A stretch of DNA of 64,000 bases. It comes from Eremomyces bilateralis CBS 781.70 (lineage: Eukaryota). The notes under the pieces were generated by a model. It had not been told where the DNA came from and did not search any database. It was given only the letters and a program-made list of their open reading frames with translations. The stretch lies in NCBI GenBank assembly GCA_010015585.1, contig ML975166.1; one strand, 5' to 3'. Both the position numbers and the translations under genes were made by a program. This document shows positions 18,678 through 34,759 of this stretch, in pieces; position 1 is the first letter of the stretch, and each line of letters begins with the position of its first letter.

Positions 18678-18922
18678 AGCGAGATGCCTGATACTTTGGC
18701 CGACTCGAGAAAACAACCGATATCAGGTATTTCGGTGACCTTAAGAAATCTACGATATCGGATATCTCTGTCGACCTCGAGAAAACCTCTGATATCAGGT
18801 ATTTATATCGACCTCGAGAAAACACCCGATATTAGGTATCTCGGTCAATCCCAGGTCAACCCGTGAAGTGTGCTTCCTCACCTGTAATACTCAGCGAGGT
18901 CCCCGATATCAGGTACCTCGGT
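18678..18922. repeat. Degenerate 36-37 bp tandem array with flanking inverted copy; MITE-like relic
   Basis: Four units resembling GACCTCGAGAAAACACCCGATATCAGGTATTTCGGTC at 18701-18847, a further partial copy at 18903-18922 and an inverted partial copy at about 18678-18699. Confidence 0.7.
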
Positions 18923-19554: not shown

Positions 19555-21383
19555 ATGACGTCTGATGACGAGGATGAAGAGCTTAGACGAGCAATTGCCT
19601 TGTCTCTGCAGGATGTTCATGGTTCACCGCTCCCATCCGACAATATGGCCAGTCGGGATGTCAACAAATCGAACGTGAACAATAACACAGCAAATGGCAA
19701 AAAAGAGTCCGCTGCAATGATTCAGTATGGAGCCTCACAAGCTAGGTATATCGACACAGTTCAACAAGCAACAATCAAGTCGTTTCCACGGAATTTACAT
19801 GTCACTACACTCTCCAACTAACACGTATCAATTCTATGAACCGAGACTCACAGCTTGATAGTGCACCCCACAAGAGACGGCACTCTTCGTCTACAATCTC
19901 CATTGAATCAGACGATGCAGGAAGCAAGAAGCAAAAGCTAGACCTTGAAGATAGGAAATCATCTCCGGCACGCCCAGACGCACCACCACCCTTCCCGAAT
20001 GTCCGTGGTCTCCTCCGCAAAACCTGGGTGTTCGGACAACCACGAGACAACGACATAAAGATCGAGGAAGTGTTGAGACCTTCCGACCTACGGCTGGCAG
20101 TTCTGAGTGCATTTCAATGGGACATGGAATGGATCTTGAACAAAGTGAAGCCCACGACTAAGCTGGTCTTCGTCATGGAAGCCAAAGAAGAGGAGGTTCG
20201 GAAGCAATGGAGAACAGACGCAGACCACTACAAAAACTTGGTGCTCTGCTTCCCTCCTATGCCGGGTCAAGTCAATCGGATGCACAGCAAGCTCATGCTG
20301 CTCTCTTTCGAGAACTGGATACGCGTCGTCATCCCAACAGCGAATCTCGTCCCGTATGATTGGGGAGAGTCGGCCAACCCGAACAATCGAGTCTCCGGCG
20401 TCATGGAGAACTCCCTCTTCCTCATCGACCTGCCACGGCGTTCGGACGGGAAGTTGACCGCTCGGAAAGACCTAACCGATTTTGGTCGAGAACTGCTCTC
20501 GTTCTGCGAAAGCTCCACGTTCCCGCCCTACGTCATCGACGGCCTTTTGAAATTCGATTATACCAACACCAAGCACATCCAATTCGTCCACTCGGTTGGC
20601 GGATCTCACATCGTAGGACCAGCGGAGACGGGCTTGTTCGGACTCAGCCGCAGCGTTCGCAATCTTGGCATGGAGGTGGAGCGACGAAAAGCACTGTTCG
20701 TCCAGCCTTCCACAGCGAAAGGCTCTGAAGTTCACGTCGACTACGCCACGGCTTCGCTCGGTGCGCTGAATTATCCCTTCATATCCACTTTCTACGATGC
20801 CTTACTCGGTCGCGAAGTCAAACAGCCAACGAAAGGCGCGACCAGCAACCCCATCCAACTCCTAAAACGCGTCTTCCGGATATTCTTTCCTACGTACGAC
20901 ACTGTAGCAACCAGTACGAAAGGCACCGACTCCGGTGGGACGATCTTCCTGATGTCGAAATGGTGGAATGCCGACACCTTTCCGAAAGAACTTATGAGGG
21001 ATCATGTTTCTCGCCGGGCGGGCATCCTAAGTCACAGTAAGATGATTCTGGTGCGCCATGTCTCGGTCGCCAGTCAGGGAGACGCTTCGAGCAGCAGAGG
21101 AGCCGGTTCGATCGACCCTGCCTATCTTTACGTCGGATCTCACAACCTGTCGGAGAGTGCCTGGGGCAAATTGGTTACAGATCGCGCCACGAAGAAACTG
21201 AAGATCAATTGCGCAAACTGGGAGTGCGGCGTCATATTCCGGATCGCCTCACCGGAACAGAAGGGCGAAGAATTGGATTTTGCTCTGTGCGAGGGTGGCT
21301 CATTGGATAGCATACCTTGGGAACTGCCAGGAAGACCATATGAGAATCATCGACCCTGGTTCTGTATGGAAGATTTCCCTTGA
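19555..21383 (+). CDS. TDP1: Tyrosyl-DNA phosphodiesterase (PLD superfamily) with N-terminal ubiquitin-interacting motif
   Basis: UIM DEDEELRRAIALSL; two HxK motifs (MHSKLMLL..PTANL and SHSKMIL..GSHNLSESAWG..NWECGV). One intron is needed between about 19675 and 19861; exact boundaries are ambiguous. Confidence 0.9.
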
Positions 21384-24609: not shown

Positions 24610-25844
24610 ATGCAGTTTTCACTTGCCGTTCTTGCGGCTCTGGTGCCGGCCATCTGGGCTCAATGCCCAAGTGTCGAATTCATCTACGGTGCGTCTGGTC
24701 GAATACTGACGGTCTCGTCTCATCTAATTTCACGTTAGCGCGAGCAACGACCGAACCTCCGCAGAACTATGGAAACGACTTTGACGGAGCCGCTGCTCAG
24801 ACCTGGTCCAGGGGATATGGAGCGGCCGGTTACTCTCTGTTCACCAACATAACTGCCTTGATTCCTGACGCCGCTGGACATCCGGTCCATTATCCTGTAC
24901 GTACCGCCTGTTTCTAACAACCAGAAGTTCTTGCTGAGGGGTCTGTAGGCAAGCATGGGAGATTCTATGCCTATTGGCGTGCAAGATTACCTATCACACC
25001 TTGGGGAAACCGCCCAGCGTTGCCCTGACACCAAGTTCGCCCTGGGAGGACACTCCCAAGGAGGTATGGTCACTGTCCAAGTGATTCCTCAAATCCCGGC
25101 GAACATCCTTTCTCGTGTCATCTCAGTGACAATGTTCGGTTCTCCGGCTTGCCCAACGCAGGTATCTGGTCGGTGCATGTCATACTGCCATAGTGGTGAC
25201 TTTGTAAGTGCCCTTGCTAGATATACGAGCGGTTTACTGATATATCCTAGGTATGTGATAGCGCCGGAGGCGGAGGTCTTGGTGGGCTACTAGGTGGCCT
25301 CGGAGGCTCCAGCGGTGGGTCGGGCGGGCTGGGTGGATTGGGAGGATCTAGCGGCGGACTCGGCGGACTTGGGGGACTCGGGGGTTCCAGTGGAGGCCTT
25401 GGTGGACTGAGTGGACTTGGGGGCTCCAGCGGTGGATTTGGAGGCCTGGGAGGTTCTAGTGGAGGTCTCGGTGGACTCAGAGGACTTGGGGGTTCCAGCG
25501 GAGGGCTGGGTGGATTGGGTGGACTTGGGGGCTCTAGCGGTGGGTTGGGCGGACTTGGCGGGCTCGGGGGTTCCAGCGGGAGATCAGGTGGACTCTCGGG
25601 CCTCTCGGGTGGCCTAGGCGGAATAGGAGGCGGTCTTCGAGGCCTGGGAGGGAGCACTCTAGGAGCGGAGAGAAGGGATCTTGTCGAACGCGCCCCCCAA
25701 TGCACTGGCGCTGCGGTGGAGAACCTCCGTCCATCACAGGGCAGCCAGAACGCTCATCTTGCATACAGCGCTGATGGATACTACATTGAAGCCGCTGCTT
25801 GCTTCGTCCTCAGCCAGTATGAGAAGAGCAAAGGTGCCGCTTGA
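24610..25844 (+). CDS. Secreted cutinase/CE5-family protein with a long Gly-rich insertion
   Basis: Signal peptide MQFSLAVLAALVPAIWA; FIYARATTEP, RCPDTKFALGGHSQGG, VTMFGSP, YCHSGDFVC and AHLAY motifs. Introns 24689-24738, 24897-24948, 25204-25250. Confidence 0.9.
25265..25660 (+). repeat. Coding tandem repeat (about 39 bp unit, LGGSSGGLGGLGG) inside the cutinase
   Basis: About eight LGGSSG-containing units with synonymous codon variation and no frame break. Confidence 0.9.
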
Positions 25845-26100
25845 CCGACGGCCGAGTAAATCAGACGGGTTCAATTTCGCGAAACATCGAATTGTTCCAC
25901 AACGAATATGCACACGGCCATATGATCTATACTAGGACCTATTCTTGTCTATCTAATGACCCATTTGACAGCTCGCAGGAAAATTCCTCTCCGTCCACCC
26001 CTTGTACGCAACCAGGGTTTCATATTCGAATGAGGGGAACCTGGACGTTACACGTGTTTGTTATTAATGGCATGTGGACAAGGAGAGGAGATTTTATACT

Positions 26101-26552
26101 TACTATGGTTACAGGCAAAAGTATTGTTAGCGCGGCGCTAAGCAGTGGTATTCAACCTAAACCGTTTTTGTTCTTTTTTCATTACAAATTAGATATAGAT
26201 TTCATTATCGTGTATAGCCTCCATTTGCGCCTATCACATCCTGGCATCTCTGGCCCATCGATTCGACAACTCGTACAGGAATTCCTCTGGTATAGCCTCC
26301 CAAGCATCGTTAATTCCCCCCCGAAGCTGGTCATAAGATAATCAGACATCCCCAATTCCCCATAGTGGTCCTGGATCTAGTCCTTCATCTAATTCCATAC
26401 TGTCTCAATAGGATTCAGGTCCGGAGAATGAGCAGGCTAATAGATGGTGAAATCTATATCTAATTAGTAATGGAAGAATGAACAAAACCGGTTTAGGTTA
26501 GACACCCCTGATTAGCGCCGCGCTAACAATACTTTTGCCTGTAACCATAGTA
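26101..26552 (-). mobile_element. Non-autonomous Tc1/mariner (IS630-like) deletion derivative with RIP-type mutations
   Basis: About 107-bp terminal inverted repeats (26103-26209 and 26443-26550, starting CTATGGTTACAGGCAAAAGTATTGTTAGCGCGGCGCTAA), TA at both flanks; internal minus-strand transposase tail *PAHSPDLNPIETVWN*MKD*IQ..DAWEAIPEEFL..ESMGQRCQDVIGANGGYTR. Confidence 0.95.
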
Positions 26553-28657: not shown

Positions 28658-29488
28658 CTATATACATGTCCAACCGTTATCGCAGTTGACGAGAGAGCCG
28701 TTGATAGTCCCTACGCCATCAGTGCACAAGAGAGCCACAGTCTTTGCGACCTCTTCAATCGGATTCCATCGGAGGCCAGCTGCCATTGACGAACTCGCAA
28801 GACGTAACCCTTCTGGATGATACTTGCTGACGTCATGCGCATCACTGCCCATATTCGTTTTCATAGGACCGGGCATGATTGCTAGACACCTTATCCCCTC
28901 TGGGCCATAGAAAGCTGCCGTGTTCTTCGTCAAACCCACCAGCCCGTGTTTCGACGCAGTGTAGGCGCAACCTAACCCAGTCAGCAGTGCGACTCAGCAA
29001 GATCATCGGATGTATATACCAGCACGATATCCGAACTCGCCTGCGGATGAGATGATGTTCAACAGCACACCCCCTTTCGGCTCTTGCTTCAGCATCTGCC
29101 GCACCGAGTGCTGCGACGTGATGAATGGCGCAGTAAGGTTCACCAGAAGGTTTCGGTCCCACAAAGCCCGCGGACAGTCGCCCACGGGAGCCATTTGATC
29201 GTTGATGGCCGCACAATTGATTAGAATATCGAGCCGCCCAAGCTTCTGCACGGTCTCTTCAATCGTCTTCTCCACGGCTGACTCATCCGTGCTGTCACAT
29301 TGGACTGCAAGAAGACGCTCTCGATGCTCAGCTGGAACTGTAGCTGGGCATTCCTCCAACCGCTTGGGGTCGATGTCCGTTGCAACAACGTTGGCACCCT
29401 CGGAAAGGAACCTTTGTACAATGGCCAGACCTAAACCTCCAGCTCCTCCCGTAACGATAGCAGTTTTTCCAGCTAGAAATTTAGACAT
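28658..29488 (-). CDS. Short-chain dehydrogenase/reductase
   Basis: TGGAGGLG cofactor motif, NCAAI, catalytic YTASK after one intron (about 28972-29019), PGPMKT. Confidence 0.93.
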
Positions 29489-29966
29489 GGGTTTGAAGCA
29501 TGGAAAGACTTTGGCTAATAGACTTTGGTAAAACGAGAATGCCTAGGTCGCTCCGATCAAGGTTTCCACGGAACATACATATATACATGTACCAGAATTG
29601 CCTGGGCATGCGTGCCCCGCTCCTTGTCCTCGCATTGGATACACGGGCAAGGATGAACGGACCGAACCCTGCCGCAATTATGCTGCGGGAACCGGGGTGG
29701 CTGATTTGCATAAGTGAACTTCACTTCAAACAGCGCAAGAAACTGACATTCCGTCGGAACAACTGATGCCGTGCATTGTACGTAAAGAATGACAACCGAA
29801 CATGTGCTGCTAGCCATGGTTGAACCCGACATAGGCTCAAATCGATCGTAACTGTGACTCCACATAATACAAAACTTGCACACAGCTACCTAGAGGCTCC
29901 TAGCTTGCGATCATGCCCCGAATCCCAAGGATTGCCTCTTCTGCTTCGCGGTCGGGCCAACATCCA

Positions 29967-31222
29967 CTAGACAAGCTCCACCATATTGAATGCCACGGGA
30001 CTGCACTGGTCTGCCCACCAACGATCGTAGAGGTTGGAGAAGTCCCCACTGATGCACCGATAAAACTCAGTGCTACCACCTAGAGCCAGGGTGCCATCAT
30101 TGCAGACGCTGAAACCCCCTGTAAAGATCGAGCCATCCTGTGGCGGGTCGTCGAATTGGAACTGGTAATTGGATGCGATGTATCCGGTTCGGCCGAACTC
30201 GTCTTTCAGAACCCCATTTTCAAGAGTCATTTTCAATGAGTCGGCGGAAGCGCCAGCTCGGAATTGAGGCCGTGGTGTCAGTTGGCGACGGGAGAGTAGG
30301 TTCGGAGAACGAGGAGCTTGGATTTGGCCGTCGCCAATCTGACCGACTAGTCCTCCACCTGCAGCCTGGACTTGACCGTCGCCAATCTGACTGACTGCTC
30401 CTCCACCTGGGGCTTGGATTTGGCCGTCGCCAATCTGGCCGGCTAGTCCTCCACCTGGAGCTTGGATCTGACCGTCGTCAATCTGGCCGACGAGTTTTTC
30501 ACCTGGAGCCTGGATTTGTCCATCGGCTATCTGACTAGCGATTCCTCCGCCTGGAGCTTGGATTTGGCCGTCGCCAATCTGGCCGGCTAGTCCTCCACCT
30601 GGAGCTTGGATCTGACCGTCGTCAATCTGGCCGACGAGTTTTTCACCTGGAGCCTGGATTTGTCCATCGGCTATCTGACTAGCGATTCCTCCGCCTGGAG
30701 CTTGGATTTGACCGTCGGGAACCTGGCCGACGACCCCTCCACCTGGAACTTGGATCTGGCCGTCGAGAATCTGGCCGACGACTCCTCCACCCGGAGCCTG
30801 GATTTGTCCATCGCCAATCTGAGAAACGACGCCTCCACCAGGAGCCTGGGGCTGCCCATCAGGTATCTGCGAAACGGCTCCACCTCCACCCGAAGGCGTT
30901 TGCGGCTGGCCGTCGTCGATCTAATAGATTGTTAGGAGAACTGTAAATAGATCGGTTTCATCATAGACGGTCGAACCTGCGACACCAGTTCTCCATCTCG
31001 TTTCAACCTTCCCCGTGGACCGGCCGTATTGACATCCGTCACGAGCATGCCGAACGTGCCGGGGTAGTTGGGTATGCATCCTGGGGGCGGAGGTATGTCG
31101 GGTGCTCTGAGTTCGGTTACGCCTTGGGGAGCAGTTGGCATTGCGTTTCCGGTCTGCTGCATCGACGCCGTAAGGGCAATGATTGTAACGGCGCGACGCG
31201 TCAGGGAATGTTGATGCGGCAT
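29967..31222 (-). CDS. PIR/Cis3-type covalently linked cell wall protein
   Basis: Exons 31222-30977 and 30920-29967; LKR dibasic site; 13 Q[I/V]xDGQ[I/P/V]Q repeats with a 48-bp period; C-terminal GRTGYIASNYQFQFDDPPQ..FYRCISG..QCSPV domain. Confidence 0.93.
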
Positions 31223-32707: not shown

Positions 32708-34759
32708 CTACAAATTCGGTCGCAACTGCGCTTTCCCGTCCGTCGTGAAGGCTTTGAAATATTCCTCCAGCGCCTCTCCCGTCCCCGACCCTTCCACAAG
32801 CTTCACCACACAGCCCACGTACCCGTCCGGCCGAACGACGACCACGCCCCCGTCATCCCCAAAGCCCATCTTGGCGTGCGCCGCACCCACTGCGCCGTCC
32901 GCTAAACTCTCGGGCACGCGAATGTCGGGGACATCGTCCGCGTAGATGTGGTCCCTGTAGCTGGCGAAGAGATTCCCGGCCCCCAGAAGAGTCGACCTGC
33001 GCTCGGCGATGCGCGGCCGCGGCAGCGAGAAGATGGTGCAGATGGAGAAGAACGCCGAGTGGACGTTGTGTGGTTCGTGGTGGGAGACCCGGTGGCTAGG
33101 CAGGAAGGAGAAGCGCTGGTAGAAGGACTTCGGGTGGGCGAGGTATTGCGCGAGGGACTGGAGGGCGCGGACGGAGGAGCTGGGGGCATTGCTGGAGTCG
33201 CGGTAGGGTTTGCCGCCGAAGATATAGATCCGGTACGACCCGTTGAGCGGGATCTCCTGCTCGAGGTGCACCTCGTTGGCATCGGCCACGCGAGTCACTG
33301 TCGATGGGATCAGAATGCGGCCAGTTCGCAGGGTGGTCGCCTCAGGGTGGCGGAGGAAAAGGTGGGATTTGGCTGAGTGGCTCGGACACCAGTTGAAGAC
33401 ATTGGAGCCATACGCAACACCGTATCCGCTAGTAAACTCGCAGCCGGCTTTGAATGTCTTGACGAAGTCGTTCTCCTCCAGCTCGCTGGCCTGGTGGGCC
33501 GAGCCGATTTCGCCCGCGGTGGGAGGTCGTGTTGAGAATAGCTTGGCGTATTTGGCATCGAATGAAAGCAGGTTCTGCGCTACGGATTTCCTTTCGGGCT
33601 CGTAGGTGGAAAGGATGGACCGGGGGGAGAAGTCGGATTCGACGTGGTGGATCTTCCAGGCGAGGTTCGCCGCGTCCAGAAATGCGGTGTTCATCCCTTG
33701 ACCGGCTTTTGGCTAGAGGGTGTTAGGAGCTGCTTATATGACCACCGATTGGAAAACTTACGCTATGCGTGTGGCAGCAGTCACCACCGAGGAAGACACG
33801 TTCGTCAAGTGTATACTTTGATGCGATGCCTTGTCCAATAGGGTACACCGAGTACCACTCGACGCTATCCCACTCGAGGTAGTAGGGTTTCAAGATCTGT
33901 TTCGCTTTTTCTTGCACCTCTTTCTCCGTCGCCGTTTTCCGAGGGTTGAAGTCCGGATCTGTTGAGGAGGCAATCTGAATGTACAGCCGGACCATGTTGT
34001 CCTCCCTTGGAATGACCATGATCGAACCGGCATCTGAGTGGATCGTACATTTCATCTGTTTTCGATGTCAGAATTCTGGAAACGCAACTAGAACCGCTAG
34101 CATACCTTGATGTCGGGGAAGTTAGTCCGCACCACACCATCCATGACGCCCCATACATTGGAGATGGGGTCCCCAAAGTCCATCTTCACGCCAAGCCGCT
34201 CTCGAATGAAGCTCCGAGCCCCTTCTCCGCTGAAAAGATACTTCGCACGAACCGTCTCCTTGCCCTTCTGCTCTCCATCGACATGCTGGATTGTTACGGA
34301 CACCGGATAAGTCGGGTCGTGCCCATCGTTCTCGAAATCGGTGATTGTCCACGGTCTCTGGACCGATGTTCCATTCGTTTCCATGTCCCCGATGAACGCT
34401 TGCTCGATGTGTCCTTGATGCAACAGCGTTGTGAACGGGTATCTCGCGTCAATGAACTTCGGGCAACTTGCCCAAGTCCCTGTTCGATGGATCCCCTGGT
34501 TGCCTGCGGCCGGGTCCCAAAACGCAACCTCGTACACCTTCGCCGGATGATGGGCCATTATGGCTCGTTTTAAGCCCATATTCCGTAAAAGGTCAAGGGA
34601 TCGCGGTTGAATGCCATCGGCACGTCCGGTGGCTGTTGGTTCCGGCCTGTTGTCGATATGCTTGATCTTGTAACCCCACCTCGCAAGGCATGTACTTAGC
34701 ATCAGGCCAACCGGACCTGCGCCAACGATGACAATGTCATATTTATCCGCGGAAGCCAT
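32708..34759 (-). CDS. FAD-dependent phenol 2-monooxygenase family protein
   Basis: [44 protein letters not shown] and C-terminal [10 protein letters not shown]; two introns (about 34038-34105 and 33713-33760). Confidence 0.93.

Follow-up and report, generated by a model that had tools for sequence, protein, structure and literature searches.

Among single-chain alpha/beta hydrolases cutinases are regarded as the smallest, and they serve as workhorses of polyester degradation; the canonical fungal enzymes have an N-terminal pro-peptide. In proinsulin with its C-peptide, the yeast K1 and K28 killer toxins and aspergilloglutamic peptidase cuts at basic sites take out an internal spacer and the two chains that result stay associated, but their folds are unrelated to that of cutinase and the analogy is one of processing only. 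The serine carboxypeptidases are cut at a point between Ser and Asp, and Kex2 is not known to be the protease responsible. The two-chain serine carboxypeptidases and SCPL acyltransferases, including wheat CPD-WII and cathepsin A, are described in the sections of PMC9541279 covered here as Ser-Asp-His hydrolases with large and small subunits that lose an excision peptide and need disulfides; by analogy, of the alpha/beta hydrolases this group comes mechanistically closest to the protein reported here, although its enzymes are much larger and belong to a separate family, and our protein is predicted to be cut between Asp and His to give a chain of 50 residues. Also comparable are the Kex2-processed pro-domain (K2PP) and repeat proteins, for which the parts of PMC8528282 covered give KR, RR and LxxR as Kex2 motifs and include Glu, Thr and Arg among the accepted P2 residues. 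The shared feature is a disordered segment with KR, RR or LxxR after it, but in the K2PP proteins as presented there it forms an N-terminal pro-domain or a repeat precursor, whereas here it is internal and lies between two catalytic residues.

The window (the whole stretch of DNA analysed, 64,000 nucleotides of contig ML975166.1 of Eremomyces bilateralis CBS 781.70) contains a cutinase-family (CE5) gene that belongs with a clade of relatives carrying a long loop. These resemble the described fungal cutinases of CE5/PF01083 (F. solani 1cus/1cex, T. reesei 4psc and A. fumigatiaffinis 8jct) in Pfam match, motifs and the fold of a homologue model (Z ∼21), and differ in having GHSQG rather than GYSQG, an Asp-His spacing of 49–170 rather than 12–21 residues, four extra cysteines, and internal basic sites, with none between the signal peptide and the first Cys in the 26 members examined. 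The reading we prefer, at a probability of roughly 55%, is that of a secreted pro-esterase from which Kex2 would produce two chains, one with Ser and Asp that ends in a free glycine-rich tail and one of 50 residues with the His, the cleavage, the disulfide pairing and the activity all being predictions.

Gene structure and splicing

The gene lies on the forward strand and has four exons encoding 361 residues, with three GT..AG introns of 50, 52 and 47 nt. Exon 1 (24610–24688) contains the start codon, Cys19 and a hydrophobic leader judged by inspection, without a predictor, to be a probable signal peptide (residues 1–17, 24610–24660); a similar leader is present, also by inspection, in 26 clade members, and on the strength of this 17-residue leader the protein is presumably secreted. 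Exon 2 (24739–24896) encodes the ARATTEP strand motif and the sole N-glycosylation sequon, N63. Exon 3 (24949–25203), which gives the Pfam and PDB cutinase alignments, carries Cys104, Ser115, Cys147, Cys155, Cys159 and Asp163, and exon 4 (25251–25844) carries Cys166, a Gly/Leu/Ser polymer, the basic sites, the His-bearing segment and the stop codon. The GDFVC motif at the catalytic Asp is formed only by splicing, because the 47-nt intron 3 (25204–25250; GTAAGT..CTGAT..CTAG) parts GDF from VC; an intron in the paralogue L002 matches its position. The public E. bilateralis model ('alpha/beta-hydrolase, partial') matches the first 165 residues and ends at residue 169, and it therefore lacks both the repeat and the His.

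Splicing could be followed in contigs of a single sequencing run, X1, the one run listed by the search, which is not on record as RNA and is taken to be RNA by guess; its depth is 5–10, and some of its contigs include intron sequence. The joints of introns 1 and 2 are seen directly. At intron 3 one contig ends at 25210 with one differing letter and has a 9-letter loose end that equals 25258–25266, marking the joint between exons 3 and 4, and a second contig spans 25251–25711 without gaps or differences. In this one probable RNA run, all three introns are thus spliced and the repeat is retained as exon. The earlier note had considered, as a case that would refute its observation, that the repeat might be removed from a donor GTATGT at 25251. 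Because exons 3 and 4 are joined in X1 and 25251–25711 is contiguous, this GTATGT, which directly follows the acceptor, encodes Val-Cys joined to exon 3 and was rejected as a donor. The X1 contigs do not cover 25712–25812, a gap that counts neither for nor against the model, and the His codon therefore falls outside their coverage.

Skipping of the repeat to either of the AGs at 25739 and 25748 was also considered and rejected. That the repeat is spliced out by such a route, or that the gene is not expressed in this form, is in our view very improbable indeed. It would accommodate the partial public model that ends at residue 169, the fact that both AGs are in frame, and the uncovered His codon; against this stand the exon 3/4 junction and the contiguous 25251–25711 in X1, the lack of a branch consensus at the two AGs, the loss of two conserved cysteines (Cys166 and Cys315) that their use would entail, and the long loop in all 45 clade members. 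We note that six full-length members (P0018, P0021, P0023, P0032, P0038 and P0039; 244–281 aa) come from contigs of 931–1068 bases without an intron break; these contigs are probably transcripts, so that the loop would be kept in the mRNA of relatives too.

The neighbouring genes are a Tdp1 gene (19746–21383) and a cytochrome P450 gene (from 27032) on the forward strand, and short-chain dehydrogenase exons (28658–29542), a PIR-repeat wall protein gene (29967–30920) and a phenol-hydroxylase-like gene (32708–33712) on the reverse strand; between 19746 and 33712 there is no evidence of a functional link of the cutinase gene to any of them. Upstream of Tdp1, Tandem Repeats Finder reports a 37-nt repeat of 3.9 copies with 72% matches (18704–18846). 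A small repeat with inverted ends may lie downstream of the cutinase gene: the segments 26130–26170 and 26505–26550, about 400 bases apart, are reverse complements by eye, and X1 depth reaches ∼1000 at 26092–26155.

The cutinase core and its long-loop relatives

The 361-residue spliced model contains the complete set of catalytic residues that the earlier note had reported. The nucleophile Ser115 (codon 25054) lies in GHSQG, aligned to GYSQG of 4psc, 8jct and 5ajh; Asp163 (codon 25198) lies in a C-x-x-G-D-x-x-C motif (Cys159/Asp163/Cys166) placed by profile alignment to PDB chains; and His333 (codon 25755) lies in AHLAY ahead of the last helix, comparable to AHLSY in 8jct. The Asp-His spacing is 170 residues as originally given, versus 13 in the solved cutinase 8jct, in agreement with the figure that the earlier note gave for Fusarium solani cutinase. 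Exon 3 alone matches Pfam Cutinase (PF01083) at 57.7 bits (cut-off 25.9), and four homologues score 73–84 bits with matches that stop at profile position 148–151 of 173, such that the Pfam match ends ahead of the His in the clade. The 50-residue His segment, searched alone against the PDB, returned no cutinase and one chance match, and exons 2–4 gave no Pfam match to the serine carboxypeptidase family up to E = 1. By profile, motifs and the modelled fold of a homologue the protein is assigned to CE5, but it lacks the short-flap feature of canonical cutinases. The motif GHSQG refers to PHA depolymerases in the portion of PMC9878459 covered.

The fold was modelled on P0019, chosen as the best-scoring full-length relative (42% over 360 columns) with a loop that is also Gly-rich. 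An AlphaFold2 model from a 57-sequence alignment has a mean pLDDT of 86, with the core at 94–99 and the loop blocks at 46–49; confidence resumes just past the LKTR site of P0019, with residues 221–269 at 94–98. Residues 19–269 align onto residues 27–213 of F. solani cutinase with Z of 20.5–21.1 and rmsd of 2.0–2.5 over 161–170 residues among the first 40 matches listed, and Foldseek gives E 6e-10 against cutinases. Since the alignment runs through residue 269, the post-loop segment completes the cutinase fold of the model, and on this homologue the protein is predicted to have a complete cutinase fold in which only the loop is disordered. In the protein atlas P0019 falls in generic cutinase clusters only (0.91–0.92). 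P0019 and P0260–P0262, all of the cutinase family, carry the source label 'condensin complex subunit Cut3', a misannotation.

The earlier note had proposed a search for CE5 homologues with inserts at the same position, and three word-based searches and one full HMM search recovered such a clade. Of the 245 records 46 carry the Asp motif together with that of the terminal helix, and with P0027 set aside 45 clade members remain; the other records are fragments, intron read-throughs, short-loop relatives or pattern failures. Named relatives come from Eremomyces, Trichodelitschia, Venturia, Tothia, Microthyrium and Aulographum, and from the Onygenales Helicocarpus, Emmonsiellopsis and PD strains, with unnamed metagenome proteins in addition; the clade is present in Venturia species and also in non-pathogens. 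The Asp-His spacing has a median of 71 residues among the 45, the window protein having the longest loop, and the 12–21 range of the short-loop class comes from 32 relatives. A tree of core segments, midpoint-rooted and built on rows retrieved with the clade's own profile, parts 31 long-loop from 29 short-loop rows by one branch with 100/100 support. GHSQG is present in 35/45, most of the others being N-terminal fragments, and GYSQG in 0/45. The position of the loop is constant across the clade but its sequence is not, with PKG-rich, Ala/Gly-rich (AGG), Met-rich and acidic versions that share no common sequence. The architecture described earlier is real and unusual for CE5. The weight placed on its Gly/Leu/Ser sequence is not supported, the loops of relatives being of unrelated make-up.

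The only close paralogue in the genome is P0017 (L002:1165–2117, forward strand; G000:C24 near 211.4 kb), which has an Asp-His spacing of 70, an acidic spacer flanked by NTRR and LEAR, and an extra Cys pair, and is the cleanest case for excision. P0027 (Microthyrium by source name) has an Asp-His spacing of 328 with Pro-rich, repeat-like blocks between four KR/RR sites, resembling a Kex2 repeat precursor placed inside an enzyme; it has no equivalent of Cys315, and no Cys before the His. Five proteins are probable pseudoenzymes: P0031, P0050 and P0054 lack the His, and P0125 and P0133 have GHGEG in place of the nucleophile motif. With 3/45 lacking the His and two having lost the Ser, part of the clade may be non-catalytic, and together with the precursor-like P0027 these proteins would suit a reading in which a secreted, non- or poorly catalytic scaffold carries a surface-active tail or released peptides. 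We consider this quite improbable for the window protein, which has Ser, Asp and His, in a clade where the His is kept in 42/45 and GHSQG as widely as noted above.

Polymer, basic sites and cysteines

The Gly/Leu/Ser polymer occupies residues 170–302 (25266–25664, forward strand), 133 residues and 10.3 kDa, with a unit close to (GGL)3-GGSS. It consists of 77 Gly, 28 Leu, 22 Ser, 3 Arg and 3 other residues, and holds eight GGSS units and 24 GG[LFI] triplets; Tandem Repeats Finder describes a degenerate 39-nt unit with 70–76% matches. Among eight aligned ten-codon units, pairwise codon comparisons are identical in 92 cases, synonymous in 164 and non-synonymous in 24, and the excess of synonymous differences argues that the amino-acid pattern is maintained, as first suggested. 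Translation of the repeat in the remaining two forward frames was ruled out by four and five stops.

The regular period, this codon pattern, and the likeness of GGL/GGI stretches in P0019 and in the tail of another cutinase, L007, are what would be expected if the polymer were a functional module of the intact chain, whether a wax or polyester anchor, a self-assembly module, a polyproline-II bundle or a lid. We nevertheless regard this reading as improbable (surface binding by a freed tail is counted under the preferred reading and not here), given that the polymer sequence varies across the clade, that two cleavage motifs directly follow the polymer, and that exon 4 folded alone shows no structure (pLDDT 45, pTM 0.19; a single-sequence prediction and so weak). 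That same model lends no support to a polyproline-II bundle but, being from a single sequence, neither supports nor excludes one, and the passages covered of bioRxiv 10.1101/2023.11.25.568672 hold no applicable sequence rule for Gly-rich bundles of this kind. Exon 4 has no usable match in the protein atlas. In the best explanation, as we see it, the loop position accepts nearly any sequence of low complexity, and the polymer is what this particular lineage has placed there.

Two short-loop cutinases of the same genome carry low-complexity tails. L007 (L007:1108–1812, reverse strand; G000:C8) has GYSQG, an Asp-His spacing of 13 and a free C-terminal tail of 69 residues (38 Gly, 12 Ser, 8 Leu and 6 Thr) in which GGST repeats are followed by GGL-type repeats, much like the polymer of the long-loop protein. 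L008 (G000:C2 near 163.4 kb, forward strand) ends in AAGGD/TAGGD repeats.

Two features had escaped the earlier note: the polymer is directly followed by tandem Kex2-type sites, and the protein has four additional conserved cysteines. Together they suggest a cleaved internal pro-segment. By the motif rule of PMC8528282, the sites AERR and DLVER (25665–25691, forward strand) comprise RR305–306 (25671–25676) and LVER308–311 (25680–25691), the latter ending three residues before Cys315; these are the only KR, RR or LxxR matches in the protein. Across the clade KR/RR occurs in 28/45 loops, against a mean of 12.6 and a maximum of 22 in 1000 shuffles, and in 17/45 it ends 2–12 residues ahead of the conserved Cys (shuffle mean 3.0, maximum 10). 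With LxxR included, 31/45 loops have a site and 12 have at least two (mean 3.6, maximum 10); both the 2–12 window and the extended motif were picked after inspection of the data, and the members are mutually related. In 24 representatives below 70% identity the corresponding values are 13/24 for any KR/RR, a weaker result (shuffle mean 6.7, maximum 14), and 8/24 near the Cys (mean 1.6, maximum 6). The density of KR/RR per 100 aa is 1.33 in loops, 0.15 in cores and 0.24 in the tails of seven short-loop relatives. Several members have two sites flanking the loop, as P0017 does.

We have weighed these patterns against a rival reading, that of a single-chain esterase with a tolerated disordered loop, in which extra disulfides fix the His segment, the flap is permissive, the loop drifts and any nicks at basic residues are incidental. 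The length and make-up of the loop are patternless across the clade, the fold is complete in the uncut homologue model, and KR, RR and LxxR are all missing from 14/45 loops, those of P0023 and P0032 lacking any Arg, so that the clade as a whole cannot depend on cutting by Kex2. Drift of this kind does not account well, however, for sites that are enriched and near conserved cysteines beyond the shuffles, nor for the choice of basic pairs, with KK scarce (2 versus 16.9 expected) and KR and RR at double expectation. Moreover, the motifs stay while neighbouring residues change: five Onygenales near-copies keep RR and LKxR with Thr, Met or Ala at x (P2) and a Gly stretch of variable length. On balance we judge the tolerated loop somewhat unlikely.

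The protein has eight cysteines instead of the usual four. The usual two pairs have equivalents in Cys19/104 and Cys159/166, and the extra residues are Cys147, Cys155, Cys315 and Cys348. All four extra cysteines are kept in 49/50 scored clade members, and co-loss is therefore uninformative on which of them pair; their bonds could lie inside each chain instead of linking the two. A further Cys pair, of which one residue is close to the YPA motif and the other opens the loop, is present in nine members and absent from 14 with no discordant case (n=23), and in 5/9 members that have it RR occurs within 13 residues after the loop Cys.

Proposed processing and its implications

In the reading that we prefer, a long disordered internal pro-segment replaces the short Asp-His flap loop in the precursor. 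Since the long loop ends in Kex2-type signals, the enzyme probably starts out as a single chain that is then cut in two. The spliced mRNA retains the repeat, as seen in the one run, and after entry into the ER the full cutinase, with its eight cysteines, would fold around the loop as modelled on the homologue. Kex2 in the Golgi would then cleave after RR306 and LVER311. There is no site ahead of the polymer in this protein, so cleavage would leave the polymer as a free C-terminal tail, a form with a precedent in the similar 69-residue tail of L007; in that state it may serve as a flexible tail that binds surfaces. The predicted products are a Ser/Asp chain of 289 residues (26.9 kDa), ending in the 133-residue Gly/Leu/Ser tail, and a chain of 50 residues (5.2 kDa; 25692–25841, forward strand) that contains Cys315 (25701), His333 (25755) and Cys348 (25800), the last within the terminal helix, and whose equivalent is ordered in the homologue model. 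The two chains would be held together by packing and probably by disulfides from Cys315 and Cys348, and from its family membership the triad is expected to hydrolyse esters such as cutin, waxes or lipids. The autoinhibitory role of the loop suggested in the earlier note is compatible with a cleaved pro-segment.

A more far-reaching version, which we put forward tentatively and think doubtful as a whole, is that these proteins form an undescribed clade of cutinase zymogens whose pro-peptide lies within the flap of the active site. Its excision by Kex2 in the Golgi would activate the enzyme and leave the triad divided between two chains joined by disulfides, as those of insulin are. The slot would then be used to deliver tails particular to each lineage, or peptides that are released; in the present protein this would be a surface anchor of 133 residues, (GGL)n-GGSS. 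A literature search, mainly of open-access papers and at the level of titles and the openings of abstracts, found no description of the clade or of two-chain cutting in the cutinase family.

Annotation overlooks the second half of the proteins of this clade, in that the Pfam match ends ahead of the His, the public model ends at residue 169, and one homologue is mislabelled as a condensin subunit. With 35–150 extra residues between Asp and His, and a probable tolerance of cutting there, the clade may offer a natural split esterase and a permissive graft site for binding modules. If the processing that we propose is true, Kex2 pro-segments would reach from the N-termini of proteins into an active site.
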